Below are positions 1,780 through 53,390 of a stretch of 64,000 nucleotides of DNA, in pieces; within the stretch, counting starts at the first letter, position 1; every line of letters begins with the position of its first letter. Origin of the DNA: a virus. Lineage: Duplodnaviria > Caudoviricetes. Position numbers and translations under genes: made by a program. Under the pieces are notes generated by a model. It saw nothing but the letters and a program-made list of their open reading frames with translations, was not told the DNA's origin and ran no database searches. The stretch covers positions 26,107 to 90,106 of IMG/VR virus record IMGVR_UViG_3300021255_001460. The stretch is one strand, 5' to 3'.

Positions 1780-2385
1780 ATGCCCGTCACATCATTCTCA
1801 GAACACATCAACGTAAATGATCTGGGTAAGGCTGGCACATTAACCTTGTAGTGCCTCGACCTGTCTATGCGTCGTCCGGGTTTCGCCGTAATCGAATACG
1901 ACAAAGAAACCCGCGCCACAAGGGTTGTCGAATCCTCAGTGGTTGACAACAAATCCACCAAGGCTTTAAGAACGCACGGACAGATGTTGCTTGCTACTGC
2001 CGCCGAACTCAGGCGCTACTTCGAGAAATACAAAGACCGCAAACTGATCCTTGCCAAAGAGGATGCGGTTATGTCTTACCGCAACATTAACACCAGTGTA
2101 ACCATCAGCAAAGTACACGGTGTTGCTGACATGATTGCCGCCGAGTATGGCTACTTCGATTTTCAAGGTATTGGCACAACCGCAATCAAAAAGATGTTAA
2201 CTGGTCGCGGCGATGCACAGAAGGACGAAGTGGAGCGCGGCACACGGGTCTTCATCGGACAGGAGTACGAATACCAATTCGATGATGAGTCCGACGCTGT
2301 GGCTGTTGGGCTGGCGTGGCTTATTCAGGGCGGCTTGCTCAAGATGCCGAAGAACTGGAAGCTTCCAGAAAAAGAAAATGGTTGA
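1780..2385 (+). CDS. ruvC: RuvC-like Holliday junction resolvase with an in-frame TAG at codon 24 (1849-1851)
   Basis: SD GAGGTG and an ATG abutting the nrdG TGA. The frame reads ...GTLTL*CLDLSMRRPGFAVIE..., then KEDAV, IKKMLTGRGDAQKDEV and DDESDAVAVG. The first catalytic Asp (CLDLS) lies upstream of the ORF-track start at 1867. Confidence 0.85.
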
Positions 2386-2393
2386 TCTCATTA

Positions 2394-2425
2394 AGGGGTT
2401 GTCGTTATGGCAACCCCTCTTTTTT
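2394..2425 (+). terminator. Intrinsic terminator after ruvC
   Basis: AGGGGTTGTC-gttat-GGCAACCCCT stem followed by a T-run. Confidence 0.75.
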
Positions 2426-2436
2426 ATTTGTCTGGA

Positions 2437-2498
2437 TGTAACAAATTTGTGTCATCGTGCCAGCCGCTTACCAAATCCACTATTTTTCCACATTACCT
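2437..2498 (+). promoter_or_regulatory. Conserved ~62-bp upstream element, copy 1
   Basis: TGTAACA-AATT-TGTGTCA..GTGCCA..CTTACCA..CACTATTTTTCCACATTACC closely matches the reverse complement of 55941-55998. Confidence 0.6.
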
Positions 2499-2518
2499 TA
2501 ATGAGGAGTGGAAAGGCG

Positions 2519-3079
2519 GTGATAGAGATTTCACACGACGAAGGCATTCCGTTCTGGAGATGCCGAGACTGTAAGTGGTGGTCGAAGCTACCCATGACTT
2601 CCAAGTGTCCATGCTTCGACTACCACTGGATTTGCCCAGCCCGTGACCCAGCCGCCATATTTGGTGGATTTACGTCGCACTGGCAAGGGTACACCAATGG
2701 GTCGCATCGAATTTGTGCGGCCTTTCAACCAACGCATGACCAGCAGTTCTGGGATGGGTTCGACTTCTACTACAACCACTACTGTCCAGAGGCTGGGCGA
2801 CATGTGATCATCCACCCTATCACGCCACTTGGTATTCACAGGAGCGGTGTGGATGATGTGTTTATCGTTCCCGAGATTGATTTCGTTGAGTGCAAAATCA
2901 TCAAGGGCGACAGGATTCGCTACCTGCATCACTATGAGCCGCGAACAACTTTTACCAAAACAAAGGCCGAAATGATCTCATCACAGCACGGGGGCGAAAT
3001 CATACTGGGCAAAGATTTTGTGCGGTTCGACTGGGATTATTACGGTAAGCCGCCAGAAGAGGAAAATGGATATGGTTAA
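2519..3079 (+). CDS. Hypothetical Cys-rich protein
   Basis: SD AAAGGCGGT and GTG start at 2519. Contains CRDC/CPC/C motifs. Confidence 0.7.
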   Translation: MIEISHDEGIPFWRCRDCKWWSKLPMTSKCPCFDYHWICPARDPAAIFGGFTSHWQGYTNGSHRICAAFQPTHDQQFWDGFDFYYNHYCPEAGRHVIIHPITPLGIHRSGVDDVFIVPEIDFVECKIIKGDRIRYLHHYEPRTTFTKTKAEMISSQHGGEIILGKDFVRFDWDYYGKPPEEENGYG

Positions 3080-3942
3080 GAGGCTGAACGGCAAACGTGG
3101 CCCAATCATTGTGCGCGAGTGGAAACATACGGTCGGTTGCCATGATGACTGGGGATCTGAGTACTACACTGTTGAGTATTGTGTGCGGCTCTTGCTCGAC
3201 CGACATGGGTTTAGCTGGTTAATTGAGGCTGGCGACTTTACATGCCACGAGAAGAAATTGATTGACTGCGCGGTGTTCGCTTTACAGGTTATGGAACAGT
3301 GTTCGCCGCGCTACAAACGATTGATGGATCATTTATTCAAAACCAGACTGATTGAAAGGTTGTAATTTATGACAGGCCGCGAACTGATTGAGTACATCCA
3401 GCGCCACAAACTTGAAGACTGTGTGGTCGAAGTCCAATACCGTGATGATGGCGGGTACTACTTCGGTACTGACCCAGAACCGATACTTTACAAGATCGAA
3501 GCACTTGAGGATGACAGGTGGGCTTACACAGTGCCGTTCGACAGGCTGATTTTATAAGGAGTACTTTGATGTTAAGACTTGATTATGACATTATGCACTG
3601 CGGCGACGAACTAAAGAAGTTGATTGCCGCACATCCTGACCTGCCTATCGTGTTCGAGGCAAATGATGAAGCAAACTTTGGCGATTATGAAGTGACGATC
3701 TGCACTAGTGTTCACGCCAGAATCGGCGAAATCCTTGATTGTCAGCAGGAGATCGCCGACGACTATATCTTCACCGACAGAGATCAGTTTGCGGATTGTG
3801 TTCAGGATTACATTTACGATACCAGCCCATATGATGACCGCCCAGATGATTATTACATACAGAAAGCAAAACAACTTGTCGAAAGCTACGAACCTTACTG
3901 GAAGAAGTGCATTCTTGTGACGGTCGGCAACTGAGGTGGATT

Positions 3943-17605: not shown

Positions 17606-17634
17606 TTGACAATCTGTGCGTTAAACTTTATCAT
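17606..17634 (+). promoter_or_regulatory. Sigma70-type promoter for the shufflon recombinase
   Basis: TTGACA-17 bp-TATCAT. The spacer contains GCGTTAAAC, part of the crossover repeat. Confidence 0.6.
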
Positions 17635-17765
17635 AAAAAGAGCGTCAGCGTGTACCAGACGCTTGCGCTCTTATATGGTGAAAGATGTGGGGTAAGCACA
17701 TCCAACACAAAGGGAATTGTAACACATCCTTTCACCAATATCAATATATGGGAGGATGTGTTTTT

Positions 17766-19950: not shown

Positions 19951-19973
19951 AATTCCTATCATCCTTTCTGGCC

Positions 19974-20405
19974 TTACATATCAATAGGGGCTTCGTGTAG
20001 CTTTTCCACAAAGTCCGTTGGTACATGATTATGTCGTCCGCACTTCACGTACTGTTCGTACATGCGCTCGAGCGAACTTCTCGTATCCAGTGATATTGGG
20101 TTCTTCTTAACACCATAGTGGACGTATGCCCAAGTCAATTTTTCGTTCTGTAGCGTAGCTGTCTGCTCGTCGGTCTGTGCCAGCCGCCCATCAATCTCAT
20201 CAAGCCGCTGAACAATCTTGTCAATCTTCTCATCAATCGATTCAATGCGTCGCTGTGCTTCAAGCTTGCGCTCTGCTCTTTTTAACACCCAGTCATGAAC
20301 GGCCTCAAACGTTTTAACAGCGCCAACGACTACGCCAATCTAGGCAATTACTCCTACGAAAGCACCCCACCCAGAAGTGAGCCACTTAACTGCTTCCTCT
20401 CCCAT
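19974..20405 (-). CDS. Holin/haemolysin-like membrane protein with an in-frame TAG at codon 22 (20340-20342)
   Basis: ATG at 20405 reads MGEEAVKWLTSGWGAFVGVIA*IGVVVGAVKTF..., in frame with the track ORF 19974-20288. Confidence 0.8.
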
Positions 20406-27246: not shown

Positions 27247-28332
27247 TTACCGCATCAGGCCATCAAAGGTGATGGTAAGTTTGGACAAGCTGGCATTTCC
27301 AGATCCGCTCTGCCCGGTAATGTTCTGCGTAGACACAATGAGTTCATTCATCTTGCCGACCAGACAAACATCGCCCTTAGTTGCTGGCATGTTCGCGTTG
27401 ATTGTACAAGAGCCGCCATCATCAGCTACCGCCAGAATCTTTCGCCAAGCGCCCTGTACGTAAATGTAACTGCCTACATCTTCTGGGAAAAACTTCGCGG
27501 TTGTTTTCAGCAAAGCAGATCCTTGAGCGCAGATCACATAAATGTCGCGCCTGTACGGGAAGCAAGGCTCAAGATTGATGTACCCTTTGTCGTGGTATGC
27601 AAACGCATAGTTCGAGCCAACCGTGATCTTCTGGTACTTACTGTCGATGACCAGATCCTGACCAGAGGGCAACCCGACAATTTCGCACGTATCATTGTTG
27701 GCGCTGTTTACGATCACAAGTTTACGGCCTGTCGGAATTGTTCCGCGCACAGTAATGGTCGCCGGGGTTGGCTCAGTGCCGGGATTCCACACAAGCTTTG
27801 TACCCATTGCAGTTGACACGGCTGGGATCATGGAGTGGCGAAGTATGCCGCAAAAAGATTCGATGCGGTACTCGTCTACCTCGTTGTCAGTGAGTTCCAA
27901 CGTGTTCATTGTGCCGAATGGATAATACGCCGTCAGGTTGAGCGTGATTGTGCCGCTATACACTGTGAGCAGATTACGGTTCGTGTGTTCCTGATAGCGG
28001 TCGCCAGTGGGCAGTTTGCTAGGCCGCACCATGTAGGTGATCCAAGGGCGCTCGTCAAAAACCAGTTCGCCCAGTACGCCAACGTGAACCCACTGGTAAA
28101 TCTTGTCAAGCTGTGCATCGGTCAGGTCTTCAAAGTAGCAGTACAAGCTGAAGTCCTTTTGCTGAACGGTCGCCCCATTATAATAAGCGCCGGGAAAGTT
28201 TGTTACTGTTGCTGTGTTCACTTTGTACGGTGTGCCAGCATCCAGCAATGTCTTGGAATTGGGTATATAGGTCTATCCCATCTCGGTACAGTGGATGCCG
28301 CGAAAAGTAAACCCCATCACATCCGCTTTCAA
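27247..28332 (-). CDS. Distal tail (Dit)-like protein with an in-frame TAG at codon 20 (28273-28275)
   Basis: Reads MKADVMGFTFRGIHCTEMG*TYIPNSKTLLDAG..., in frame with the track ORF. GFTFxGxH is the usual Dit N-terminus, and the gene follows the tape measure gene. Confidence 0.85.
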
Positions 28333-28673: not shown

Positions 28674-31600
28674 TCAGTTGAATCTGATGCCGCCAACAGA
28701 CATTCCCTTCGACATATCTGCCACAATGGAATCCTTGACACGGGTGGCAACTTCTTCAAAGTCCGCATCATCATTCAGGGTGTCAACCTGTACGATAATG
28801 TCGCCCACATTAATTGTGTTCGCCGTAGTGTTTGTGCCAGCCAGACCGCCAAAGGAAGGAAGCTGGAAGTGCATCATGCCGATGGTGTCGAGCATATCGT
28901 TCAGCGCCTTCAAGCTGTTGGAGCGGTCGGCGTTGATCAGCAGTCGAGTCAGTTCCGCATCGTTGATACTTTCCGGGTTCGTCTTTGTGCCGTCGAGCCA
29001 AGCATAACCTGTGCGGTCAATCAAGCCGCCAGATGCATAAGCACGATGTGTATTACCCATTGCACGAGCCGCCACAGAAGCAACAGCCGACACAATGTTT
29101 GTGCTTGTGCGTTCAACCGCTTGATTTACCATATTACTAAGCCACCCGCCACCGGAACTCCCGGACGAATTTGCGTTGTTGGAATTTGTAAACCGCGAGA
29201 ATGCTGTACTAACTGTTTCTGGATTCGCTTGGTTAACTGTCCGGCTAATACTACTCAGGAAGCCACCGCTACCAGAACTACCAGACACAGGCGTTGTGTT
29301 AACACGATCCTGCGTCTTTCTCGGAATATTATAAGCACGAACATAGTCAGCAGAAACAACACCGCCACCGGGCAGATTCTTGTTACGCCAATTCACACAT
29401 TCGGTCTGACTTGCTGGGCCATAATACCAATACTTGTCATCCACAACATAGAATTGCCCATTGCTATCAGCAAGCATAAACAGGTCGCTACCCTGTCCAA
29501 GATGGTTAATTGTTCCAGAACGGATAGGCACTTGAGAAGTTGTCGGTTGTCCATTGCCTCCAGATCCTCCTCTGCCTCCACCGCCGCCAGATCCACCAGT
29601 CGCAGATGCCGCCGCCGCACTAGCAGAAGCCGCCGCAGACTGTACCTGACTCAATGCCTGAAGCGCGGTATTGGTGAATTCCATCAACTGCTCTGTTGGG
29701 AACATATCGATGTATGCTCTTCTCAGATTCTCAATAGCATCCTGCCAGCCCTGTGTCATCAGTTTCTGTGCATAGCTATTGGCTTCAAGGAACTCCTGAC
29801 TGTTCTCCTGTAGGAACTGTATGATGTAGTCGCCGCCCTTGGAGATGATCTCTTCAACCTCATCCCAGTTGGTCTTAATGATGCCAAACATTTTTTCAAG
29901 AGTTTCTGTCCAACTATCAGAATACTCTTTCTGCATGTTGGCGGTCGCCTTAATATACTCTTCGTCGTTCGCTTTAAGCCACTCGAGGATTTCGGTCATA
30001 GACATCTTCATGATATTGTTGACTTCTGCCTCAAAGTTCCTCGGATCTTTCAGCAGTTCCTCATAGTAGCTTTCGATGTAATCCGCATAGTCTTCAAGAG
30101 ATTCAACCTTTTCTGTGATAGCTTCCTGCTGGGCTTCAACTTCCTGTTCAGCCGCATCCCAAGCGATTTCTTCCTGAAGTTCCGCAATCTCTTTGGCAAT
30201 CTTCTGGGCATCTTTGGCGCGGGTCGGGTCAGCAGAAATACGAGCGTACTGTGCCTGTAAGTTGGACAGTCGCATCGCTTTGTCTTCCTGTTCAGCAAGC
30301 TGTTTGCGCTTGTTCAACTGGTTGGTCAGTTCGGAAGACTCTTTGTTCAGCGCCTTGATACGGGTGTTGGTGGTTTCAAGGATCTCGTCGCGCTCTTTCT
30401 CATAACGCTTCATGACCACTTCGAGGATCTTTTCTTCCACCTCACGCGATGCTTCAAACGCTTCTTTCTCGCGTGCTTTCCGGTCTTCGATTGCCGCATT
30501 GATGGTGTCGCGCAGGTCGCTTTCCATCTGCCAGATCTGTTTGCGGTATTCCTTGATAGCCTTTTCGTTGGCCTTGATCTGGGCGGTGTTCTGAAGAATG
30601 GCTTTGTTATAGTCGGCGTACTTCTTTTCAAGTTCGGTCAGGCGCGATGCAACGGAGTCATAAACTTCGCTGTTCGCATCTGTGCTGGCGAGTTCGGCTT
30701 TGGTTTCGTCAATCTTGGATCTCAGCTGATCCATATTGCTCTGGTAAACCTCAGACTGTTTTGCCAGCCACTTGTTTTCTTCGGTCAGAGTATTGATTAC
30801 GCCAGTGAGATAACCTTCGTCAGCCCAAGATTTTTCAATAATGCCAAGTCGGTCGAGCAGATCTTTAATGGCATCGATCTCATTGTCGATACTATCAAGA
30901 AAGAGTTTTTGTCTCCTACTTGCGGCTTCTTCGGCTTTCTGTGCTTCTTCAGCGGCAATTTCTTCGGCAGTCTTTTTAGTACCACCACCGCCTCCACCGC
31001 CACCTCTCTTGCCAGTGGTTGTCGCTGTTTCGTTATTATTTTTCTTACTACTTGTTGCCGATGCGGCTTTTGCGGCAAGACCTGTTAACCTACTAGTCGC
31101 GCTACCACCACCGCCGCCATTCACAGTCGCAGTCACCAGTCCATTAGCATCAACACCAATCCTCACGCCGTTCAAAGACATAGCCTTGTTCAACAGATTG
31201 GCAAGCGCAACCTCTGCTTCGGTGGCTGTGGATTTCATTCTGATAAAACCGTTTGTAAACGATGACGGGTCAAATCTTGTGCCAGCCATGTTCACCAAAG
31301 CCTGTGTTAAGACTTGGATGGATGCTCGGACTTGTTCGGTTTGCCCGTTCAGAATCTGAAGCGCAGTGTCAAGGTTATTTTTGACAGAATCGGCAGTCAT
31401 ACCAGTTACGGATGCCAGAAGCGAATATGCACTGGTCATTTCCTTGGTATCAGCCCCGGCATTCGCAGTGACATAATCCAAAGCTTCATATGCTCGTCTT
31501 AACTTGTCGGACTGGTCAATCATCTTTGCCATCGCTTCGGTAAATGTACCCTGATCTTCACCAGCCGCACTAAAAGCTGTCGCATACTGTTTGATAATCT

Positions 31601-34600
31601 GTCCACTTGCACCAAGCTTATTTAAATCCATCTGAGCAATCTGCTTGGCGAATCTTGACAAATCCTCTTCGCCATCTTGTAGTGCCTTACGCAGATCTTC
31701 GATAAAATCGTCGGTAATAACACCAGCACTCTTCAAAGATTTCTGCGTTGCTTCATCAAGTTCATCATAAGCCTTAATCAACCCACGGGCTTCTTCTGGC
31801 GACTTCATGGCTTCAATGATCTGCTGATAAGAATTAATCGCCACACGACCAGAGTTTACCCACTGCTGGTTGACGGTATTGAGCGCAGTACCCATACGCT
31901 TGGTTGCGTCCTCAACACCCTGACTCATCTGGGTAGATACGGTACTGAAGTCGTAATTGTTAATCTTCTCCTGAAGCTGATCAAGCCACACAACCAGCGG
32001 ATGATCCTCGCCAAGATATTCACGCATCATATCAATCGACTCGAGCCATGCGTTCAGCTTTTCGATAAGCATCGTATAAATGCCATCGAGATTACCTTCA
32101 ACATCTTCGGTATCGATTTTAAATTCAGATGCAAGAAGTTTTTGCGCTTCCTGTAATTCCTTGGCAGAAGCAATACCATCGCCCTGTGCTTCTGAAATCA
32201 GTTTCCATGCATCGTACAATCTTCCAAGTTTTGCCGCCCCAGCTTCCGCATCCATTTGTAGCGGCACAAAACTTCCAATCTCATCGTTGCGGTGTTCAAA
32301 GAGTGCATATAATTCATCGACAAATTCGCCAGCATCATTTAGTGCCTCGGCCTCTGCATTATGAACATCAGCTATGGCGGTCGAGAAATCTGTCGCGCCC
32401 TGTACCCAAAGCACCTGAAGCTTACGGATAAAATCTTCGGTCAATCCGGTCGCGCTCAAGAAGGTTTTCTGCTGTTCTTTTGTGAAGTTATCATAAACTT
32501 CAAGCACAGCCGCCACACCTTCACGAGAACCAAGACTTTCAGCAAATTCTCCGAAGAAGTCCACATTTGCCTTACCTGTGGTATTGTTCGCGGTTGCCGT
32601 CATCAGAGTGGAAAGGTTATTCAGACCGCCGTAATTCTGCGACTGAGTTTTAACCGCATCACCAAATGATATGCCAGCCAGTTCCTCGAATTGGTCGATC
32701 AGTACTTGTAGATCTCCAAGTGTTGCGCTATCTGGGGCAATCGAGTTAACTATTTCTGAGAATTCGGTTAGCTTTTCTTTTGCTCCATCAACCTTCAGAC
32801 CAATCAAGCCAAAGACTTCATCAAGATGCTGTTCCACATATTCCTTATCCAGCCCAAGAGCATCGGCAATTGTTTTGTACCTTGCCTCGTCCGCTTCCTT
32901 ATTTGCAAGATGATCTGGCGCGGTGAGTTCCTGATATGCCTTTGCCGCCTCAATGATCTTATTGTAGTCCTGACGGATTTTTTCAAATGCCGCCGTATAC
33001 TCTACTTCCTTCTTCGGGTCGAGACTCAGCGTAAAGGCTTCGGCAAGAGACTTATTATCAGAACCCATCTTACCATACAGTTCGAGGCGGTACTCATTCA
33101 TCTGCTTGATGAACTCGTCAAAGTTTACTTCGCCATGTTTGAAAGAAACTTCCAGCCCCTTGATCCAGTCATCCGTAATACCAGTCATGGACTTGAATGT
33201 CTTGAGTGTTTCTTCATCCATTGAGCCAAAAGCACGAATCAAAGCCTCCGCGCCAGAACGATCCTGTAATGCTTCGTTCATGATACGCCATGCATCTTCG
33301 ACATCTTCGGTATCAACCGCAAACTTATCAGTGAAGACATTCAGGTAGCTAAGAATCTCGCTTGTCTGATCCTGAAGTTCTGCGTTGTGTTTTTCTGCGA
33401 TAGTGTAGAACTCTGCATTATCCAGCAGATCATTCATGTCGTCGATAAACTCAGCCACAAGACTGTTTTGATCGTAATCTTCAGAGGCAGTAAATGCATC
33501 GTTCAGTGCTTCGACAGAATCAACAGTCTGATTATACTTCGCAACCAAGACATCCAGCGCTGGTTCAAGGTTGTTCTTGAGATTATCCGCATCAAGTCCG
33601 GTAACAGTAGATAGTGTCTTATAAGCTTCTTCAAGTTCGCTACCAGACAAAGCATCTTCCTTGATATTCTTGTATGCTTCCCATGCCTTAACCAGTGTGG
33701 CAAAATCAGCTTTCTGACCTTCCATCAATGGATACAATTCAATGATATTCTGGTTGCCGCCAATAGTATCACGATTATCAAAGATGTCGCTATAGCCTTT
33801 GAGGATGTCGCCACTCTTGGCACGAGCCGCCAGAGATTTTGCAGGACTTGCTTCCTCGTCCGGGTTCGCACCGTCAATCGCGCCTTCGCCATCCTGCACT
33901 GCTTTATCGACAATATCGGCAACCTTCGCCACAGCAATCCCGTAGATCTCGCTATAGTCCTGTGCGATCCGATTGTATTCATCGACATCTGCCTGAGTTG
34001 CTCCTTCGGCAGTGGCTTTCTTGTAAGCTTCGTCAACCATCTGCCAACGGTCACGCTGGAGATATCCTGCATCAGCATATGCGTTCTGGGCATTCTGGCT
34101 GATCTGCGTAACAGCATCAATTGCCTGTCGCGCCCTTGCTTTCAGGCCGCTGTCAAGTGTGTAATCAAATCCATCAATTACGCTCTGATACTGCTGTTTG
34201 TATCCTTCTGCCAACCACTGTGGAACGTTATCCAGATCAAGGAAGTTGCTGAATATATCACGCACTTGGCCTTTCAGATCTTCCTTCTGCCGCTCCAGAT
34301 TAGCAAGGTCAGATACGGTCTGCATGTATTCTTCTTGAGCATAAGAGATATTGCTGTTATTCCAATAGTCCTGATTGTTGATGGCTTCATGATGTGCATT
34401 ATCTTTAATCCACTGATCAAATGTGCCGCCATAATTGAAAGCCATATTGCCGCTTGTCCAAAGATCATACTCCTTAAAGATCTTGGAGAAAGCGTCAATA
34501 TCAGTACCTCTCCTGAACCGTTCAAGAATATCCTCGCCGTATGCTTCCTGTAGTGCCGCCGCATAGTTATCGACGAACTGATTCATGTCGGTATAATAAC

Positions 34601-37385
34601 GTCCATGAGCAGTGGGAATTTGATCTTCCTGCCGCCTGATCTTACTGGCGGTTGCGTCGATGGTATTCAAGGTTTCATAAGCGGATCGTTTCGATGCCTC
34701 TTTTTGTAGCCGCAGATTTTCAGCAAGTGATTCGTTCAGCTTGTCTACCATATCTTTCTGGTAGCTATACTTATCACCAATATTCTGCACACCGCTGGTA
34801 ATACCGGGAATTAATCCTTCAAGAGCCGCATAAATTTCATTCAGCTTTTGCTGATCTTCTGCGGTCTTGTCTGTTTTCTTGGAAAGTTCTTCATACTCAT
34901 CGCGAAGTGCGACAATAGCGTCATTTTTCTGTGCAAATTTTTCCTGTTCTTCTCTTGCGTCACTAATACTATTTTTAATGTCAGACAAAGACTGATCAAT
35001 ATCTTCGCTACGGTCGGCAATTTCCGTTTCAGCACCGCCAACCATTCCGATCAAAGAAGAGAACAGCGCAATCATCGCACCAACACCAGCCGCAATCATT
35101 GCATACGGATGGCCTGTGGCGAAGTTAATAATTGTGTCGAACAAGTTAAATGATTTGTGAGCATTCAGGAAAGTTACTAAAGATCCAATCAGACCAATGA
35201 GAACCGGGAGCGCGATATTCAGTCCACCAACAGCGCTGGTCACATCGAGGAAATCGGTGGCAAGATCAAGCAATCCCTTAGTGATTTCTGGAATGTGGAA
35301 GGCACTATATAGTTTTTCCAACGAAGCCTGAAGTCTACCTTGTGCCGCCGTAACTGATTCCTGCCAGACCGCGAAAGACTCAGTTGTGGTATTGGCACTA
35401 TCCATTGCGATTTGATATAGTGTCAGTGCGCGAGAAACTCCGTCTACACTTTCAGCCGTCTTTGACAAATCTTCCATCAAGCCGATAAAGAAGTTCTGTC
35501 CACGAGTACCAGCCATAACTGTAGCCAGATAGGATCGGGTCTTGCTATCCATGTCTGCCCACTTTTCACCGATCTCGTTAAACACTTGGCCCATCTTACG
35601 CCACTTGCCATTCGCATCCATCAGAGCAATACCCTGTGTGGCAAGTGCTTTTGTAACATCATTCAGTTTGGTTTCGTCATCACTATTGAAACCAGTCTGC
35701 TTGATCTGACGCATACGTGCCAGAATTGTGTTCAGCGCAGTACCGATAGATTCAGGGGCAAGACGAGTACGCTCGGACAATGTGGCAATCCAAGAAGACA
35801 ATTGCTCAAACGATACACCAGCATCAGATGCAACACTCGCAACCTTCTGCATTGCGGTTGCCATTTCAGCACCACTCGTTGCGGCGGCGTTTCCCATTGC
35901 GATAAACGTATCTGTGACATGTTCGATATTAAGTCCAACTTGTCCTGTGGCATCATCAACCCAACCGGAATAACCGTTCAGAGTTGCAGTCAAAAGTTCT
36001 GAAGCTTCGTCAAAATTCATCTTGGTAACCTTTGCGAACTCGGTTACCCATTTAAGTCTGTCGTCAACTTCATCATCACTCAAGCCCTGACGATAGAATG
36101 TAATTGCCGCTTCAGCAATCTCTTTGCTACTAACATTCATCTCACGAGCCATATCGCGATACTTAACAGCCAGTTCGTCTGCGGCTTGTTGGTTCATACC
36201 AGTAACCACACGAATTTCGTTCATCTGGTCATAGTATTCGTTAGCATATTGGGTTGCTTCCTGCCACATTTTTCGCAGAAGATTTTGGGCGGCATGAACA
36301 CCAATCTGCACCAATGATGTAAGAATCTTGTCAGCCAGCGTGGTGGTGACCGTTAGTTCAGAATTCGCGTCGGCAAACTTACCCCTGAGATCTGTGGCAT
36401 AATCGCCTGACTTGCGAATATAGTCAGCTTCCAGTTGAGTATTATCAGCGCCAGCATCAACAAGCGCATTAATCTCGGCTTCTACACCCCTCAACTGTTG
36501 TGCATAATGATAAGACTGTTCAATAGCCGCAGAACGTTTTTCTTCACTCGAAGATTCGGAATGTCCAACAGCATCTGCGGATGACATTTTCTTAAAGTAT
36601 TCAAGACGCTGTTTGTATAGTTCGTTAAGCCGCCTCTGATTGGCGATCTCATTTTGTGTAGCAGTTGTGTCGGCTTGCTTAGCCCTGACCAAAGCGGCTT
36701 CCTGCTCATATGTTCTGTTCAGCTGTTCAAGTGCATTGCGCTGTGTTTCAGTCAGAGTGATGTTCCGGGATCTCTGCTCATACTCCGCACGTAAAGCATC
36801 TGCCTGTGCATGTAAGGCCACAATAGAATTTGCATCTTTTGATGGATCAAGTTTTGCGGCCTGTAATTCATATGAGTTGATTTGCTTCTGGAGACTCAAC
36901 AACTGCTGATATTGTTCGACTTGCCTTTTGGAGGCTTCAGTTGCGGCCTTTTGATCGGCAACCTGTGCTTTGATTTGCTCAGTACGAGTCTGTCCTTTTG
37001 AAACAAGTTCCGCAAGTTGAAGCTTTTCTTTGTCATTGAACTTGATGCTATCTACAATCAGATTAACAATAGCACCTAACTTCTCCGCTCTTTTTTGTAG
37101 CGCTTGCAGTTCGCTGGCATTTGTCTCAGCACTTAACCGCGCATTCTGAGCAGATATGTTATTAAGTTCGGACAAAACCTTCTTGAGTTCATTATAAGCG
37201 ATAGTGGCTTCCTTGGCAGACTTTGCCGCGCCAGACTGGTTACCCATATCAGCGATTGCACCATCAACGCCACTGATCTACCCTTTGATTTTGTCCATCT
37301 GTTCTGCGGTGAACGATGTTGCACTAACTAGCGCATCATGTAATGGTTTCCAGTTAATGACTAGTTCGCCAACATTAACAGCCAT
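28674..37385 (-). CDS. Tape measure protein (~2903 aa) with an in-frame TAG at codon 36 (37278-37280)
   Basis: Strong SD GGGGAGGG and ATG at 37385; MAVNVGELVINW...DKIKG*ISGVDG is in frame with the 2857-aa track ORF. TP901-type TMP core (AITFYRQGL, ATSGAEMATAMQK, ESIGTALNTILAR). Confidence 0.92.
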
Positions 37386-38980: not shown

Positions 38981-40803
38981 TTACCAGTCAACTGTGCTGG
39001 CGCTGGACTTGGTTACCATGTCGCCCTTGTTGTCGAAAGGCTCAAAAATCATACGGTTGGTACGCTTATCAGCACGTTTCGGGTCGATAACAGAGAAGGT
39101 AATGCTGTTGGTTGCATGAGACTTGTCATTGATCTTCAACATGATTCGCTACGTCATGTCCGCTTTTCAGCCGCTATGTGTCACCACATATGATGAGACT
39201 ATATCTTCACCCTCGCATCTCAGCGTAGGGGTCTTCCCATTTCAGCTTCGCTTGAAGCTTACTCTACTCGCTTCTTCCTGCATATCCTTGTATGCATTCT
39301 GCTTTCGATAGTCGTTAGGCTTTTATAAAACATCATCAACATATTCCCAATGGTAACCGCCACATTTATATCCGGTCTTACAAGCCCTCGTCAGATTGCC
39401 TCGCGACACATTATATTTTGTAGCGGCATCAACCATAGTATAGAAAACTTCGTTGGTTTCAATACAACGAATTGTTCGATGACAAGTAGCAATTACTTGT
39501 TCAACCGTCTTTGCTTTGAACTCAGCATCCTGCCATCTTGCTGTTGCCTGTTCAGATCTTCGTTTGCGTTTTTCTGGATCTTTCCAAGCACTCTTCATTC
39601 TCCGCTTCATATCATCTTTATACTGCGGATCACTCCATTGACGAATCAAATTGTCAATGTTTGGAATGTTCCCGCCGCCACTTATATTGTAGCCATACTG
39701 ATGATCTGTTGCGTTGAATTGAGTAATCAGTTCAATTTCCTTGCGGCAAGCTTCGTCGTATGTCAACCCGGTATATAAAATTTTGTGATCAAAATTTTCC
39801 CACCCATATTTCTGAATTGCTTTCCAGAACTATGTGCAAGACTGATATCGTTTACCATCAGATCCCCAACGATGTGTTGGTTTCTGACAAGTAATACCAA
39901 TATACACCTTACCATTAATACGATTGGTATGTTGATAAACTATATACTTCTTATTCACTTGTACCCCTTAATAACAAGTGATGATGTTTTACTTCAGCAC
40001 GGTAGGTTTTCTTTACACTGCAACCTATGGTGTAAAGACGTTCCCCGTTTAAGGAAGATATTTTTCATAAACATTACTGTTTACGCAACCTGTTTTGTTA
40101 AGCTGTTGTCGAATCCGGGAGCGGCGGTAGCACGTACCTTGTAGAACAGCCAGTGGAGCATACCCTTGAGAGTAGCTTCGGAGCAGTCCGTGCCGCTGGA
40201 GTACAGAGGCCAGTGAGCAGTCAGAGAACCCTTTGCCATCGTGCTGTCGGTGTACTCGTTCAGTTCGTAGCCATTCACAACCCGGCGGGTATAGAATACA
40301 CGGAACTCATCGCCAACCGCAACATCGGAAGCATTGAGTGTGATCTCGGTCTTGCCAGCAACTTCAGCAGTAGAAGCAGTGATAGCAACCTTGAACTTGC
40401 CTTCTGCGGCGGTTTCCTCTTCGGTTTCCTCAAGTCCGCGAATATACACAGAACCAGCTTCAACCTCGAACGGCAGTACGACCTTCGGGCCAGTCTCAAC
40501 CTGAACCAGCGTGGCTTCATCAACACCAGCGTCAACAACTTCGATTTCAGCGTTGTTCGCCATCATGAAGATATCCATCGTGAACAGAGAAGAAGCGAAG
40601 GTAATTTCAACAGTCTTATCAGTTTCGATGTAAGCCAGCGGCAGAGACTTCTGACCACCAGTGATAGTAACGACGTTATTGGTACGACTGATAGATGCGG
40701 TGTTCACTTCGTCAAAATGGAAGTGTACACCATCACAACGAGTAAAGTCCTAGTCAGGGTTATCAACAATATAACCCTCATACTTGGGAATATAAATCGC
40801 CAT
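38981..40803 (-). CDS. Major tail (tube) protein, exons 40803-40101 and 39126-38981 (~282 aa), with an in-frame TAG at codon 18 (40750-40752)
   Basis: SD GGGAGG; reads MAIYIPKYEGYIVDNPD*DFTRCDG.... Splicing gives APGFDNS-Y-KSHATNSITFSVIDPKRADKR...VDW*. Confidence 0.85.
39127..40100 (-). mobile_element. Group I intron (974 nt) carrying a homing endonuclease
   Basis: P1: exon CAGCU pairs with IGS GGUUG. Core elements TTAAACGGGGAACG, AACCTACCGTGCTGAAG, CTAACGACTATCGAAAG and GAAGATATAGTCT; terminal G at 39127. Confidence 0.92.
39323..39958 (-). CDS. GIY-YIG homing endonuclease (C-terminal NUMOD1-like domain) with an in-frame TAG at codon 43 (39830-39832)
   Basis: GTG start; YIVYQHTNRINGKVYIGIT...RW...CT*FWKAIQKYGWENF...EIELI...YGYNISGGG; C-terminal CKTGYKCGGYHWEY. 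Confidence 0.88.
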
Positions 40804-41369: not shown

Positions 41370-42056
41370 TTATATAAACGAATCCCAGTCAATCGTGTCG
41401 TCAGGCACATAACCCCAATCGGTAAATGCGTCTGGGGCATCATAATTATTCCTATGATCAACACTGCTGTGAATAGCCATATTATTCAACGTCGCCGCAA
41501 ATGCTTGTGGTATAAAACTAGCCAGTGCATTTTGTAAAATATCCTTCGCCTTGTGTTCCATATTCTGTGCGGCATCTTCGATATAATACTGTCCTTCTTC
41601 TGGCAAGATTTTCATATAACCAAGAACATCATGTGCAGATTTTGACTTGCTCAATTCCCTTCCAGACAAATCGTGATTCCATACTTCCTGACCCGGTTTC
41701 GTGAGCAACGTGCCATCCTCGTCTGTATTACCTTCTTGGATCACAAGACTGCGTTCCTTTACATATGGCTCAACAGCATCTCCAAGACCAGCACGAATAG
41801 TAATCACAGCATCATTCATCTCTGGCTTGAACGTTTTGTTGGAATCATCAATTGCTTGTTGGACACTGCGTACCCAATCCTGAGTCTCCTTCACACGTTC
41901 AACACCATGACTATTTGTATACGATCTATGTTCAAGGTTCATTGTGTCGGCGGCAATCCGTACAGTCTTCTTCAACTCTTCAGCAAACTCATTTTGAATT
42001 TCCTGACATGCACCAGCCAGTCTATTTGCCACGGCATTAACAACACTTTCAGCCAT
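41370..42056 (-). CDS. Putative neck/tail-completion protein
   Basis: Position in the head-tail joining block; ATG overlaps the upstream gene end. Confidence 0.5.
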   Translation of the reverse strand: MAESVVNAVANRLAGACQEIQNEFAEELKKTVRIAADTMNLEHRSYTNSHGVERVKETQDWVRSVQQAIDDSNKTFKPEMNDAVITIRAGLGDAVEPYVKERSLVIQEGNTDEDGTLLTKPGQEVWNHDLSGRELSKSKSAHDVLGYMKILPEEGQYYIEDAAQNMEHKAKDILQNALASFIPQAFAATLNNMAIHSSVDHRNNYDAPDAFTDWGYVPDDTIDWDSFI

Positions 42057-42888
42057 TGACAACACCACCCTGAACACGTTTGCCGTACACAACAATCACA
42101 CCGTGTTTCTTATGAATATCCACCTCGGCAGTAGATATATCAACCGCACGATATGTGAACTTATGGATAACAAACTCATCGTCAATCATGAGTTGCTTCG
42201 TCTTATCATTCCACTGGAGCGAAACCGTAATCAAGTCGTTCGGCGTAATACCCGGAATGGCAGTACTTGCAGAATAGTCAGGTCTGCCTTGGTACAACGT
42301 CCAGCTTGCCGGGATGTTGTCCACAATGACCAGCCGCCCACGTTTGTCCAGATCCACGCCCGTCTTATGAATCACAAATCCGTTCTCGTCGGTGGGCGCT
42401 TCATACTTCCGTGTAAACGTCAGGTAGTTGTTGCACTCTGTACTCTGCGTCGCCAGATTGTTCGCGTGGTTCATTACGTTCCAGCTACAGAGGAACACAA
42501 CACCATCTTCGCGGATGACATAATCACCCTTGTGGATCTCCAGTGTCCGCTCCACTTTCAGGTTGGTGGACATATCGGAGTTGCCGATCTTGGATTTCCA
42601 GTCAATAGGTGTTTGCTGACCGCGAAAGAAAAGCCCCGGAGTCTGGCGGTTGTACCAGTCATGAATCATCTCGAATGTATAATTTACACCGGGTTTATAT
42701 TCAAGCAGTTCGTTCTTCCAGTCAGAATACAGGGTTTCCGGGTCGAGGAATCTGTCGCCATTGTATGCCTGTTGATTGTAGGTCACACTGGCTTCGACTT
42801 CCTCTTTTGTGCCGATACTTATATGTGAACCCGCTGAAGTAACGTAGTCGGGCTACTCACTCCTGCGGACTGCAAATACCTTGCCCAT
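42049..42888 (-). CDS. Putative head-tail joining protein; probable start 42888 with TAG at codon 12 (42853-42855), alternative GTG start 42786
   Basis: SD GGTGAG and ATG read MGKVFAVRRSE*PDYVTSAG...ASVTYNQQAY..., in frame with the track ORF. Confidence 0.6.
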
Positions 42889-46940: not shown

Positions 46941-48548
46941 TTATCCAGTTTGTGCCTGAGATCCTTCAGGGTTACTTGGTTTGGGTTGTCTTCCTGTCTG
47001 GGAATTGGTCGGGTCGCTCTGCCGCACAGAAACATCAAGTGTAGGTCTGCCACGCTCCGCTTCCGCTTCGCTATCGTTGCCGCCAGAAGAATTACTGGTC
47101 GCGCCAGTTTCCTCAACAGAAAGAATCTTGTCGATGCCGTTAGCCTTTTCATCCTTCTTGCGCTCGACTTCCTGCTTCATATCAAATCCATGAGTCTGGA
47201 GCAATGTTTCGCGGCTAACAACACCTTTGTCATACAGTGTGCGGCAGATCTCCTGAAACTGTTTACTTCCGTTCAGATCAACTGGTGGGAAGGTAAACTC
47301 AGGGATCTTGTCTGGCGATCCGTGAGCAATACCCCGGAAACCCGGTTCGTTCAGCCGCCTGTTGATCTTGTTCATCATGTTGCAGAACAGATCACGGGCA
47401 ACCTTGATCCTGATAGCCGCCGTCTGCATACTCACCTGTGCTGTTGCAAAGGTTGAGGATGAAGATGTGTTGCCGCTCACCATGATCTCGGAAATACCAC
47501 CAGCCGCCAGAATCTGCTGGTTCACACTGTTGTACTTTTCATAATGGAACAGTTCGTCAAGGTCGGGCTGAATAAAGTCGGCCTGTGCCCAAGTGTTTGT
47601 TACCACAAGAGCAGATCCGGTCATGGCTTTCTTGAAGCCTTCCTTAATGGCGTTCAACTGTTCGTTATTCGGTAGCACCTGTCCGTCCTTGTCGCCATAG
47701 CGCACATGAACGAAAGACCGCATACCAAGCCGCAAGTTGGCATCTTCCCAGTCGCTGATCTTGCGCTTCTTTGCCAGCGGCATTAAAGCGGAAGCAATCA
47801 TCGGCACTGAGTATTTCTGCCACTCTTCTTTCGGCTCTTGTAATGTGAACGTGTGTCGGGGATCAAGCTGAACCCAAGGCATACTGTTTCGTATAGCCAT
47901 CGCAATCTCGGGCGGGTAACCACATAGCCTGACAGAAAGATCTTTATCATCGATCACATTGTTGGCGGTGGTGAAACTATCAAAGCCAAGATCGTTGACT
48001 ACCGACATGACATCGTACTCGAGAACAGGTTCTCCACCGATTGCCACGCCACAAATCCTTATATTATGAGGCGGCAGTGTAATTAATCTGCCGTCATCAA
48101 AAAGATAAGAATACACATTGGAATACTTGAAATACTGCGTAAATACAGACAACCTGTAGTTCGTGAAGTTGTGCTGTTTGTAATACGTCATGTATTTCTT
48201 CTTGGTCGCCTCGTCAGCGCCCACAAGCTTCGGATCATCGGCACAGGCGAAAGGTATGTAAACCTCGCGCAGAATGCCACGGTAGATCGAATCATAATCG
48301 TAGTAGTAATCACTCAGTTTGAACAGCCTGTTGATGTTGTGCTGTTTGTCTCTGAGGATTGCGTCATAATCTGTATCTTCGATCTATCCAACCTGTGCGA
48401 CCCGGTTCTCGGAGAAAGTCAGCGTGATATCGTTGTCACTCACCACGCCAAGATCTTTCCGTGCAGTAGGCATCCCAGTGGTATTTGTGCCAGTGCTGAT
48501 CTGAGGTGTTCTTGTGAACAAACTCGCCAGCCTCGGGAATATTGCCAA
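46941..48548 (-). CDS. Portal protein (~535 aa) with an in-frame TAG at codon 55 (48384-48386)
   Basis: SD GAGGAG and TTG at 48548; reads ...SENRVAQVG*IEDTDYDAILRDKQHNINRLFKLSDYY..., in frame with the track ORF; directly downstream of terL. Confidence 0.82.
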
Positions 48549-48567: not shown

Positions 48568-50313
48568 TTACATGTAATCGACCAGAACGATGCATTCGTC
48601 TGACGATCCACTTCTATATTTTCTAGTCCTCTCGTCTTCAAGATCCGCAATAAAAGCGAGTCCGTAAGACAATGAGGAATAACGGTCTTTATGCTGGGTG
48701 GATTTGGCAGTGCCAATAATCGGGTAACCGCTTGCGCTAGGCCGCGACACAATGTTGCCCATCTCGATCTGGAGCGCATCTGCTTCGTACAGGATTGCGA
48801 TCTCCTCGGTAGTTAACTTGTGGCGGTTATCCTCGCCCTCTTCAATGATTGTGCCGTCCTTCGATACGGTAACACGTTCGGTTGAAGCATCAGCGATCTT
48901 GCCGTTAACCAAGCGCCGCGACTCAACTGGCAGTTCCAGCGTACCCTTCTCAAGCGCAATCGTGGTCACGTTCACACACTTCTGGTTGAACGCATTGTTT
49001 GCATCGATTGCTCTTAACAGCGGCACAGCGTTCTGAATGGAATAAGGATCTGTATCAAGTACCAGCGGCGGGTACTCCTTGCCAGTATTTGGATCAAGCC
49101 AAGGCTCGGAAAGGAACTGAGGGAAAGCGTTGCCCACACCATGATGGTCGAATACGACTTTAATGGTTCGCGGGAACTTCACCAGTAGCCGCCTCAATTC
49201 ATCTGCCAACATGGTCAACGTGTAACCGTGATAGGTTCGCATGTAAACCAGCTTTCGCTTGATGAATCCTTCGCCAGCATCAATCAGCTTGATAATACTG
49301 ATTGCGGTATTGTCAGCAGAGGTCGCACCTGACACAGCAATATCGATTGCTATTACGTAGTCGGCCTTGCTTCCTGCTGGCATCGCCACTTCCACTTCTT
49401 TTAATGTGCGGCACTTCTGTGTCTTCTCATACGGGAACAGACTGCCCGACTCCGCACCAAGGAAGATGGACTCATATTCTGTCATCCACTTCTCTTCGGT
49501 CATGCGCTCTTTCTGATCCAAGAACCACTCTCGCGAGGTGATCCCGATTCGTGCAGAGCATTCCCAGTTCAGCGCACAGGCGAACACTCCGTCGCTCCGT
49601 TTGGTAGGATCGGCGATTCGCTTGAGTGCGTCGGTAAACTTATCGTAGAAGTGGTTGCTCTTCAGACAGGCTGATGTGATACTGCACACCGCAGAAGGAT
49701 GATCCTTGAAGCCGTGCTGAATTGCCACGCCGCGAGTTGTGTTCAGAACGGGCAGTGCAACAGCTTCCCAGTCTGCCGCATTGACTTCCGGGGCTTCGTC
49801 TATGATTAACAGCTTGGCACGGTTGCCACGGAATGTGCCGATGGAGAACGATTCAATAATCGAACCATTCTTCAGCACACAGCGCCCCTTGGCTCGTGTT
49901 AAGCTGACAGGACGGCGACCGCCGCTACAATTGATCTCACGCAACACGTTTTCGTTGCGAATGAAATCAGACTCGATCTTACGCAGAACCAGTGTCGCCT
50001 GTTCGCCAGTGCCAGAGATAACAGCCACCATGCTCCCGGGCCACAGCACTGCGTATGCGAGGCAACATACTGCCACCACCCAAGTCTTGCCAGCGCCACG
50101 GTTGTTGACCATCAGAACTTCTTTGCCGTTGCCAATCATCCGCGCCTGAATCTTTTGGGTGTCTTTTAACTTTATCTTGAAGTACTGTTCGATAAAGACA
50201 TCAAGATGCGTTCGCCAGTAATGAATCAGGAGTGCGACCGCCTGTGGATCTTTGATCTCATGACCGTTAATGCTCGGCTTAATCTTGCCGCTCTATAAAG
50301 CTTGCGAAATCAT
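48568..50313 (-). CDS. terL: Terminase large subunit (~581 aa) with an in-frame TAG at codon 7 (50293-50295)
   Basis: ATGA overlap with the upstream gene; MISQAL*SGKIK...YWRTHLDVFIEQYFKIKLKDTQKI, Walker A RGAGKT, Walker B LLIIDEA, nuclease IAIDIA and HKDRYSSL. Confidence 0.92.
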
Positions 50314-51203: not shown

Positions 51204-51229
51204 ATAATTCCTCTCGCCTTGTTTATACT

Positions 51230-51272
51230 AAAAAACACTACAACACTGCTTGGGATTACAGTGTCGTAGTGT
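51230..51272 (-). terminator. Intrinsic terminator just upstream of the packaging genes
   Basis: ACACTACGACACTG-TAATCCCAAG-CAGTGTTGTAGTGT-TTTTT on the minus strand. Confidence 0.65.
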
Positions 51273-51480
51273 TGTAGTGTAGTGTTATTGGCAGGTAAAT
51301 TTGAAAGGAGATGTGGAGGACTAACCATGAGTAAGGCTGGCGCAATCCCAATTTTGTAGCCAGCACGTAACAATCAATCTATGTGGCGGCTTGAACCGAT
51401 TCATTCCACCGCCAGAATTTTGACACATGTTTCAGTGCGGTATAGCTTCTATATACTCGCCAGTATGGCGCTATACAAGC

Positions 51481-51783
51481 TTAAAAAATATTCCACCAGT
51501 ACTCCGAAGCCCTGTGGTAGTAGCCCGGAGTCGCGGTGAAATCAATGTCCTGTCGCCGCATTTTTCGATTGCACATTTTCTTCACATAACCAGTGAAGCG
51601 GCTTTTGCTCCGATGCAGGACAAGACCTTTGATGTTGCCGTGCCTGTTTGTTCTTTCCGCAAAGTAGAAGTTTGGTCGCCAGAGATAGCCGTCAAACATT
51701 GTGGCACATTCGACCATTGCTCTCTTCTTTTTGCGGTTCATTAATCTGCGGTACGCTCGACCACTTTTTCGCACGACAATCAC
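51481..51783 (-). CDS. Small basic hypothetical protein
   Basis: SD GAGGT and GTG; Arg/Lys-rich. Confidence 0.55.
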   Translation of the reverse strand: MIVVRKSGRAYRRLMNRKKKRAMVECATMFDGYLWRPNFYFAERTNRHGNIKGLVLHRSKSRFTGYVKKMCNRKMRRQDIDFTATPGYYHRASEYWWNIF

Positions 51784-52065
51784 CTCAAATATTTAAATGC
51801 CGGGTGTGCAGTAGGCATATGTATTTCGATATGCTTGGAATCACACGAAGCCCGCGCGGATTTCACACCGTTGTTAAGCAGATAACGTACAACTCGTCCA
51901 GCGTCTGCCTCGACTCGCTGACCGGGTCACCTACGAAGTCACTTGCTCCGCATCTCTCTTAGCCGTTGTACGTGTCGGAGTTCGGCCTCCGGGCGTTCCG
52001 CTTACCGGGTAGCTATTGTCTTACAGTCTTTCAATACTTGACTACCGACATTAAATAATATTATG

Positions 52066-52163
52066 TACGGGGAGTGGGATTCGAACCCACAAGAATCAGG
52101 TGAAAGTGCCTGATTTTACTGGGATTTTAGAAATCCTTGACTTTGCCGTTTGCCTATCCCCGC
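52066..52163 (-). tRNA. Amber suppressor tRNA (anticodon CUA), class II, leucine-type body
   Basis: GCGGGGA TA GGCAAACGGCAAAGTC A AGGAT-TTCTAAA-ATCCC [30-nt variable arm, stem AATCAGG/CCTGATT] GTGGG-TTCGAAT-CCCAC TCCCCGT A. G1.U72, A73, A15:U48; CCA is not encoded. Confidence 0.9.
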
Positions 52164-52196
52164 TTGAGCCGCAACAAATATAATTTGCGGCTTTGT

Positions 52197-53390
52197 TTAT
52201 TTCACCTTAATTGGGTACACGCACCGTCTGCCATACCCATTTTCGATCACCATCGCAGTAGCACCCGGACATGCCCCACGCTCCAAGCTTTGTGCGTACT
52301 TATCAATGCCGCACAAAGAAGGAACACGGACAATGGTCGAGTGACCGTCTGGTGAAGTACCAACCGAAAACTCTGCGTCGTTGTGGAGATGCCCAACCAC
52401 AAAGTAATCAATTGGTTCACCATATAGGTTGATGCTGTCACGAGCCAGATCAGTAAGTGTCTTGCCACTGATACTGTCGCCATGCATCAACATAAATTTG
52501 TAGCCGCACACTTCGACCAGTTTACGCCGCTCACAATCGGAACAGATCTCAATATTGTCTATTCCATCCAGCCGCGCTTTCAAGTACCAGATAACGATAC
52601 GCTCGAGGTTCTCATCCTCGAATTCGCGCGATTTGGCTCGGAGTGGTCGGACTTCAGAATGGTTGCCGCTCACAGCGTAAACCTTAATCTGAGTTCCAAA
52701 TCTGGCTAAGTGTTTCAGCCACAACGCAAGGTGTTCGCCAAGTTTCATTACCTGATCGACAATGCCGTACTCAAGTCGCGTCAGTTGACTTTGCCGCAAC
52801 ATTCCATCAATCAGGTCGCCTACGAGGAAGATGTTCATGGTGGCAATCTTTTCTTTTCCAAGAATCAACTCAGTCTGCATCGCCACTTGCAACATCCGGT
52901 GAACGAATATATCTGAGTTGTACACGTTCATCTTCTCGCCACGTAAGCCGCGCACTTCAATGTCCGCACCAAAGTGAAAGTCTCCAAGGGCAAGAACAAG
53001 TTCTTTGGATTCAGCTTTGGATTCGACTTTGCTTTCAGCTTCGCGACTGGCGGCTTCAAACTCTCCCCGCAAGTCAGGCATTGCTTTCGCGGCTCGTTCA
53101 ATAGCGTTTGCTAATTCTGTTCGCCGCGCATCGCTTCTGCGGTAAGCCATAACTTCATTACGAAGATCACGGAGTGTCTGCTCTTTCGCGAAGTTGTCGC
53201 CTTCGCACCGCATCACTGCATCCGCAAGCATTACTCCAACGCCAGCCTTCCGCAGTGTATCGGGGCTGACATCAAGGTGGTACTTCTCTACAAGATCAGC
53301 CCACTCATATTCTGTCAGACCATTCTTCTTTGCCACAATATCTTCAACGAGCAAAGCCTGATCTTCTCGTGTAAGTTCTGTCTAAAGCAT
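52197..53390 (-). CDS. Calcineurin-like metallophosphoesterase with N-terminal helical domain; in-frame TAG at codon 3 (53382-53384)
   Basis: LGDFHFG, VGDLIDG, SGNH, MHGD and VGHLH motifs; SD GAGGT then ATG CTT TAG ACA GAA..., in frame with the track ORF. Confidence 0.8.

Follow-up and report, generated by a model that had tools for sequence, protein, structure and literature searches.

TAG-bearing genes of the locus

We analysed a 64,000-nucleotide window (the whole stretch of DNA under study, bases 26107-90106 of the 90,106-bp linear IMG/VR virus record IMGVR_UViG_3300021255_001460, with an estimated completeness of 78%) from a phage genome in which ten genes carry an in-frame TAG codon and a phage tRNA carries the anticodon CUA, which reads UAG. 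These TAGs are genuine sense codons that need the phage tRNA(CUA), and they most likely specify leucine. In a stop-to-stop scan that took only TAA and TGA as stops and was filtered to coding frames, each of the ten open reading frames (ORFs) contains a single TAG near its 5' end. A first-pass annotation of this DNA had listed the ten codons, noted that six of the TAGs are followed by A, and stated that the coding-frame ORFs contain no later TAG; all of this holds within the window, and the tRNA it had reported is real. Its further claim of N-terminal conservation across the TAG is borne out by homology for eight of the ten genes, in which homologs or profiles extend across the TAG or conserved sequence follows the TAG ahead of any start codon, with weaker evidence for the tape measure protein (TMP) and a holin-like protein.

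The large terminase gene terL (48568..50313, minus strand) has its TAG at codon 7 (50293-50295). Its ATG overlaps the stop of the preceding gene, the 52 codons after the TAG are free of ATG, GTG and TTG, and within this start-less stretch lies a block, YWRTHLDVFIE..KLKD.QK..AR, that is found in over 100 homologs, which are 553-562 aa long; the public protein database contains the window's terL only as a truncated 523-aa call. In the portal gene (46941..48548, minus strand; TAG at codon 55, 48384-48386), a match to phrog_2739 begins at aa 55, none of the 54 codons after the TAG is ATG, GTG or TTG, and relatives align on either side of the TAG, one of them (G004) with a TAG in the same column. 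The RuvC-like resolvase (1780..2385, plus strand; TAG at codon 24, 1849-1851) matches Pfam RuvC at aa 27-178 and phrog_159 at aa 20-197, the latter crossing the TAG, and its catalytic motif CLDLS sits after the TAG and before the next ATG; the site is Leu in relative G001. For the distal tail protein Dit (27247..28332, minus strand; TAG at codon 20 from a TTG start or 15 from an ATG, 28273-28275), the phrog_33 match at aa 2-251 crosses the TAG, and five relatives aligned across it have L, L, V, V and L. The calcineurin-like phosphoesterase/exonuclease (52197..53390, minus strand; TAG at codon 3, 53382-53384) matches Pfam Metallophos and phrog_284, and its N-terminus ML(TAG)TELT corresponds to LLEELT in relatives, where the TAG site is L, L, L and I.

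The tail tube gene (40081..40803, minus strand; TAG at codon 18, 40750-40752) has a Shine-Dalgarno (SD) sequence, AAGGGAGG, ahead of its ATG, and the TAG column in relatives contains 18 I, 8 V, 4 L and 3 M. The YomX-like virion protein (42049..42888, minus strand; TAG at codon 12, 42853-42855), called a neck protein in the first-pass annotation, has an N-terminus, MGKVF..RRSE(TAG), that aligns to MGRVY..RRVDV of G001, and its ortholog in relatives carries Pfam YomX_C. The eighth of these genes encodes a GIY-YIG homing endonuclease (39323..39958, minus strand; TAG at codon 43, 39830-39832), for which matches to phrog_314 (aa 1-209) and Pfam GIY-YIG (aa 4-83) both cross the TAG, and its homolog in locus L010 has Tyr at the site. 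It had been taken for an intron endonuclease, a view that the strain comparison overturns. The 981-bp endonuclease block (39122-40102) is a presence/absence polymorphism that replaces the last codons of the tube gene, and this replacement marks a typical free-standing homing endonuclease, not an intronic one; in L002, the single contig (97% identical, from another metagenome) found by a close-relative scan of IMG/VR, and in strains of three other sequencing runs, position 39121 is joined to 40103/40106 with 7-10 other letters between, and in a second variant only 39334-39990 is missing.

The TMP gene (28674..37385, minus strand) has one TAG in 2903 codons, at codon 36 (37278-37280). Its N-terminal homology is weak and TMP profiles match from aa 58 onward, so that the case for read-through is the strong SD, GGGGAGGG, ahead of the ATG at 37385. 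The remaining gene (19974..20405, minus strand; TAG at codon 22, 20340-20342) encodes a membrane protein with a hydrophobic helix across the TAG, the first start codon after the TAG falling past this helix, and a single homolog has Ile at the site. It had been described as holin-like; the holin proper is the adjoining gene at 19585-19962, which matches phrog_6918 and has no TAG, and an endolysin gene adjoins them.

The TAGs as sense codons

Errors of assembly are excluded as the source of the TAGs, since those of terL, portal, neck and tube are retained in L002 and that of TMP is intact in an independent sheep-gut strain with 11 nearby differences (40 of about 700 differing letters were listed); the first-pass annotation had asked for this check. 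The TAGs might alternatively be ordinary gene boundaries, with each gene starting downstream and the upstream reading an artefact. TAG makes up about 18% of stop triplets here, and at 23237-24880, 50313-51203, 56695-57180 and the primase gene an upstream TAG is indeed merely a boundary with a good start after it. Conserved domains nevertheless cross the TAG or precede the first possible start in terL, portal, ruvC, the GIY-YIG endonuclease, Dit, tube and the phosphoesterase; the genome encodes a tRNA(CUA) to match; and 174 homology-validated independent TAG events were found across the phage family. Judged from these alignments, an artefact of this kind is already refuted for eight of the ten genes, and we give it very little credence overall.

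A re-call of the rest of the genome added six in-frame TAGs to the ten of the window, all in the first 26 kb, in the plus-strand tail-fibre module, so that the 90-kb genome has 16. One fibre paralog has TAGs at codons 32 and 38, another at codons 114 and 125 of 214, mid-gene and upstream of the fibre domain, and two more genes have single TAGs at codons 14 and 9. The claim of exactly one TAG per gene, always N-terminal, is thus a property of the window only. TAG-bearing genes of the genome belong to virion, packaging, lysis-adjacent and late DNA-processing functions, and the genes for replication and nucleotide metabolism, those for primase-helicase, DNA polymerase and NrdD among them, have no in-frame TAG. 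The proposed late programme stands to this extent, with the qualification that in relatives a few genes of the early block besides ruvC have a stray single in-frame TAG close to their start.

TAG is also the real stop of the integrase, of a Cas4-like exonuclease and of at least two small genes. This termination, the lack of in-frame TAGs in replication genes, and a tRNA that the phage itself carries, and that in close relatives comes and goes with TAG use, leave scant room for a host that itself reads TAG as an amino acid and a phage that simply matches its code. Such a host code draws what support it has from a search of species genomes, in which related terminases were found only in two contigs of metagenome-assembled genomes (MAGs; one Alloprevotella, one a Clostridia MAG from sheep omasum), which could be mis-binned. 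Both contigs are probably binned phage DNA, and we claim no host from them.

The integrase gene, upstream of the window (L003:7752-9767), shows a separate arrangement: its terminal TAG is in frame with a phrog_1366 ATPase gene seven codons on, and suppression of this TAG would yield an integrase-ATPase fusion of about 680 aa, and the arrangement may be a coincidence.

The amino acid inserted at TAG

Relatives were assembled from six contigs found via terL homologs, 80 IMG/VR loci found via terL alignment and five whole related genomes, and 87 loci were compared. All-against-all BLASTP restricted to coding frames yielded 333 TAG sites with conserved flanks, which collapse to the 174 independent events, and residues were tallied for the 145 of them that had two or more informative homologs. 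Leu was the majority residue in 75 events (52%, against a background Leu frequency of 7.6%), Lys in 13, Ile in nine and Gln in five (3%). The Gln count is at background level and departs from the expectation of code 15, in which TAG is Gln; the first-pass annotation had cited only Gln and Trp recoding, and both the TAG columns and the tRNA point to Leu. Columns of invariant Leu include WRTH(TAG)DVFIE in terL of L010, where seven of seven other sequences have Leu, and further ones in portal, phosphoesterase and neck genes. The window's own sites correspond to L (ruvC), L/V (Dit), L/I (phosphoesterase) and I/V/L/M (tube) in relatives. Leu codons at TAG columns occur in background proportions.

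Lys is the commonest non-aliphatic majority residue, and we considered it as a second decoding; this was rejected, the 13 Lys-majority events (in L054, L064, L063 and others) being concentrated in no one genome. They may reflect AAG-to-TAG mutation at tolerant sites or Lys mischarging of short CUA tRNAs.

Neither a synthetase of the leucyl-tRNA synthetase (LeuRS) type (class Ia) nor a release factor is encoded in the five related genomes. Taken with the Leu residues at TAG columns and the likeness of the tRNA to tRNA-Leu(UAA), described below, this makes decoding of TAG as Leu via the host LeuRS the best and most likely reading.

The tRNA and its surroundings

The tRNA(CUA) lies at 52066..52163 on the minus strand and scores 44.8 bits against Rfam RF00005 (gathering score 29). 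It folds as a cloverleaf with an extra hairpin and has the anticodon loop UUCUAAA, the discriminator A73, a G1-U72 pair and a 28-nt variable arm. ARAGORN did not detect the window's tRNA, probably owing to the 28-nt arm, and it labels the short-variable-loop CUA tRNAs of the family as tRNA-Pyl. Among 28 other phage tRNAs, the closest to that of the window is tRNA-Leu(UAA) of the non-recoded relative G005 (60 of 83 positions identical), which is also the closest to the tRNA of L012 (64/80). Across the family, CUA tRNAs have variable regions of 5-7, 13-17 or 28 nt with similar acceptor and T arms.

The tRNA and the TAGs vary together. G005 has neither an in-frame TAG nor a tRNA(CUA), genomes G000-G004, all with in-frame TAGs, have exactly one tRNA(CUA) each, and across the 87 loci presence of the tRNA was associated with presence of TAGs (22/24 versus 35/63, p=0.002). 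TAG load is low in G002, sixteen in the window genome and higher in G003, and along TMP alone G001 has 16 scattered TAGs and G004 has 27. The window genome thus occupies a sparse position in a graded series of ordinary recoding, and the earlier statement that this is not a uniform code change amounts to a difference of degree, since relatives range from 0 to 27 TAGs along TMP.

The position of the tRNA is conserved. It shares the late strand with terS/terL and directly precedes them; in 23 related loci it likewise shares the strand of terL and is found 2-6 kb upstream of this gene. On the late strand, a promoter-like site (52177-52205) ends 14 nt before the tRNA, and a strong terminator-like 16-bp hairpin with a T run (51234-51273, late strand) separates the tRNA from the terS-like gene; the roughly 780 nt between hairpin and promoter-like site contain a single ORF of 100 codons. 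Such promoter- and terminator-like sites are no commoner on the late strand than in shuffled sequence, and this layout is only a hint of how the tRNA might be transcribed. In one sheep-gut strain (run X4), 52035-52195, the region of the tRNA, is replaced by 1335 other letters, which identifies the suppressor locus as a variable cassette among strains that are 95-99% identical.

The tRNA could instead serve mainly another purpose, for instance to lengthen host proteins, to offset a host defence that cleaves tRNA-Leu or to stand in for a depleted tRNA, and the TAGs would then be a side effect. Genes for a Thg1-like enzyme and an RNA ligase at 11149-15410, typical of tRNA repair, would suit such a purpose, which we nonetheless regard as very improbable: an anticodon CUA reads no sense codon and so cannot replace a host tRNA, and the tight co-occurrence of the tRNA with in-frame TAGs in essential late genes shows that the phage depends on it. 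From the sequences we conclude firmly that the phage's late proteins could not be completed without its tRNA(CUA).

Position of TAGs within genes

The TAGs are strikingly close to gene starts, as the first-pass annotation had noted, and its alternative of even scatter along genes is not borne out: relative to uniform placement, Fisher's p is 6e-6 for the ten TAGs of the window and 2.5e-6 for all sixteen of the genome. For a family-wide test, 147 events were mapped to TAG-free orthologs: the first decile of the gene contains 31% of them and the first fifth 51% (Kolmogorov-Smirnov p=4.9e-17), and half lie at most 60 codons from the start where 22% would be expected. The requirement for conserved flanks should disfavour sites near the start, which makes this test conservative. 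The bias is present in TAG-sparse loci (70%) and in TAG-dense loci (57%), and independent events recur in the same genes: terL has 18, at codons 13, 18, 21, 24, 30, 42, 55 and later, the phosphoesterase has ten, with eight of the nine that could be placed lying within 31 codons, and tube and portal behave likewise.

Control codons TTG, CTG, CAG and AAG are flat along genes, and for the rare Leu codons TTA and CTA the first fifth contains 26-27%, a weak start-proximal excess. On these controls we rejected the view that a ramp of AT-rich sequence or rare codons could by itself produce the bias, TTG being flat and TTA/CTA only weakly biased. Phage phAss-1, for which the literature assigns TAG to Gln, was discarded as a positional control, as the very long frames without TAA or TGA in its first 50 kb were crowded with TAGs that are true stops and the annotation of its record is fragmentary.

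Genome layout and neighbouring features

Early, replication and nucleotide-metabolism genes, including those for NrdD, the Thg1-like enzyme, the RNA ligase and the integrase, occupy the plus strand. The late block is on the minus strand, running from about 57210 down to 19179, with genes for phosphoesterase, terS-like protein, terL, portal, capsid, tube, TMP, Dit, tail proteins, endolysin and holin. The Pfam families YonB (capsid), YomU (tube) and YomX (virion), which are those of SPbeta, were recorded for orthologs in relatives L005, L007 and L012, and the window's own tube, neck, portal and holin-like proteins have no Pfam match. We would place the phage in an SPbeta-like family of ruminant guts, and sequencing runs of sheep and bovine guts, from 13 studies, contain DNA that is nearly identical. 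A blastn search with the terL-portal region against 50,697 phage records returned no match.

Several further features were observed in this genome. Upstream of the window, a group I intron (Rfam, 60.2 bits; L004:4386-4673, genome positions 20386-20673) lies between two ORFs that match DNA polymerase, and the phage's DNA polymerase gene appears to be split by this self-splicing intron. Two adjoining tyrosine-recombinase genes are found at 15937-18761, which together with the integrase upstream of the window makes three recombinases in this phage. The cluster at 11149-15410 encodes the Thg1-like tRNA 5'-end repair enzyme, a PAPS-reductase-like protein, a class-V aminotransferase of the cysteine desulfurase type and the RNA ligase, and its make-up suggests a module either for tRNA repair/thiolation or for DNA-sulfur modification.

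A proposed leucine-decoded gate on late genes

We hypothesize that, in this phage family, TAG serves as a rare sense codon, most likely for leucine, in packaging, virion, lysis-adjacent, resolvase and nuclease genes that are needed late. Decoding would be the task of a single phage tRNA(CUA) whose body is of tRNA-Leu-like descent and whose charging would presumably fall to the anticodon-blind LeuRS of the host, such that full-length late proteins would be possible only once the phage tRNA is present. The arrangement would be a natural counterpart of a feed-forward gate in which a suppressor tRNA keeps leaky expression down. Placement of TAGs within the first 50 or so codons would then limit the cost of failed suppression to a short, harmless peptide, where failure at a later TAG would leave a long fragment that could poison assembly. 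As a whole, a leucine-decoded TAG gate on late genes with start-proximal TAGs is the best explanation we have and, in our judgement, a reasonably probable one; charging by LeuRS, the timing of tRNA expression and an adaptive rather than tolerated gate are parts of it that we infer.

More tentatively, and with slightly less than even confidence, we propose that a ruminant-gut phage family with genomes of about 90-130 kb evolved this tRNA-Leu amber gate, that selection repeatedly places TAGs in the first 50 or so codons of late genes, and that the resulting feed-forward loop makes the lytic switch sharper and keeps leaky late genes silent in lysogens. The adaptive gate is modestly favoured by the conserved position of the tRNA, the recurrent start-proximal gains in the same genes and a bias that persists in TAG-dense genomes.

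Several observations pull the other way. The 28-nt arm of the tRNA is unusual, and the variable loops are short in close relatives whose TAG sites show the same Leu signal, which leaves the identity rules uncertain. At several TAG sites of this phage, relatives have residues other than Leu (D/E/T/N in portal, Y in the GIY-YIG endonuclease, K/S/E/Q in fibre genes), and a sister strain has an extra mid-gene TAG at a position where the window has CAG, a Gln codon. TAG counts per gene fit random scatter, with no clear preference for a gene family once length is considered, so that an adaptive lock is not needed to explain these data. Co-transcription of the tRNA with the late genes would, moreover, make it a source of delay and leak damping rather than an independent checkpoint. 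The first-pass annotation had proposed an evolved checkpoint with one lock per module and a role in timing and in the silencing of prophages; its one-per-module pattern is no different from random scatter, given that the chance of nine TAGs all falling in different genes among about 37 late-strand genes is about 0.35 and that the two fibre paralogs have two TAGs each.

The same counts suit a neutral, cost-shaped form of recoding, in which TAG would be a rare Leu synonym drifting into late genes with nothing regulated, and competition from release factor 1 would make distal TAGs costlier and create the start-proximal gradient by drift. It is in keeping with Poisson-like scatter among genes, the absence of a clear gene preference beyond length, a continuum of relatives from none to dense and evenly spread TAGs, background usage of Leu codons at TAG columns, and the weak start-proximal excess of TTA and CTA (26-27% in the first fifth). 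Yet neutral drift leaves unexplained why a suppressor tRNA is kept and why it is always found where the packaging module begins; the bias of TAG (51%) greatly exceeds that of the other rare Leu codons and persists in TAG-dense loci (57%), and independent start-proximal gains recur in the same genes. We therefore consider purely neutral recoding unlikely, although it deserves serious weight beside a leucine-decoded gate.

Comparison with known systems

Recoding of stop codons with suppressor tRNAs is already known from gut phages, including crAss-like, Lak, Garnet, Topaz and phAss-1 phages, under code 15 (TAG to Gln) and code 4 (TGA to Trp) (bioRxiv 10.1101/2021.08.26.457843; PMC10607447; PMC9523058). 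Borges et al. saw only Gln and Trp recoding, and for phages with TAG read as Gln they have already proposed a role in timing and in gating of lysis-lysogeny (bioRxiv 10.1101/2021.08.26.457843). The phage described here resembles these in having in-frame TAGs in late, structural and lysis-region genes, its own tRNA(CUA), and early genes and an integrase that are compatible with the standard code, and it shows the features by which systems of the Borges type are recognised: read-through stops in conserved genes, a matching phage tRNA and enrichment in late genes. It differs in the aligned residue, which in its family is Leu rather than Gln, and in sparseness, with 16 TAGs in 90 kb; screens based on gene fragmentation or coding density would probably miss recoding of this kind. 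For the recoded gut phages a bias among gene classes has been described and no positional bias, whereas in this family the first fifth of the gene accounts for half of the events. In the literature that we searched, we found no report of a phage reading TAG as Leu and none of start-proximal TAG placement, so that these two properties, with the strength of the gradient, are what appears new.

If this reading is correct, TAG to Leu would be a third stop-to-sense reassignment in phages, beside TAG to Gln and TGA to Trp, and an anticodon-blind LeuRS would offer one way in which a code can change. Since recoding this sparse probably also eludes gene callers, numerous gut phages may have mis-annotated late genes, as with the truncated terL in the public database, and the start-proximal gradient would offer a quantitative signature able to separate regulation from drift.

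A special Leu tRNA that gates late functions has a cellular parallel in Streptomyces bldA, a tRNA-Leu(UAA) whose decoding of the rare TTA codon gates late developmental genes (PMC10732093). Both systems have one special Leu tRNA for a rare codon confined to late-acting genes; the TTA of Streptomyces is a standard sense codon, however, whereas the phage uses a stop codon, and organism and tRNA differ. Reading of TAG as Leu itself is found in NCBI codes 16 and 22, those of chlorophycean and Scenedesmus mitochondria, where it is organelle-wide. Unlike these, the phage case would be a virus-borne, stage-limited suppression in a host with the standard code.

A further analogue is supP of Escherichia coli, an amber suppressor in which the CAA anticodon of leuX is changed to CUA and which has been engineered into a feed-forward "leak dampener" loop; LeuRS is anticodon-independent, and two to three TAGs per gene were optimal in cells that contain release factor 1 (PMC7969014). 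The phage is predicted to share with supP a Leu-accepting CUA tRNA, an anticodon-blind LeuRS and the exchange of Leu codons for TAG. Where supP is a laboratory mutant placed in a synthetic circuit, the phage system is natural, phage-borne, conserved in its family and known from sequence alone, and it would, if the gate is real, represent the natural counterpart of these engineered suppressor-tRNA leak dampeners.

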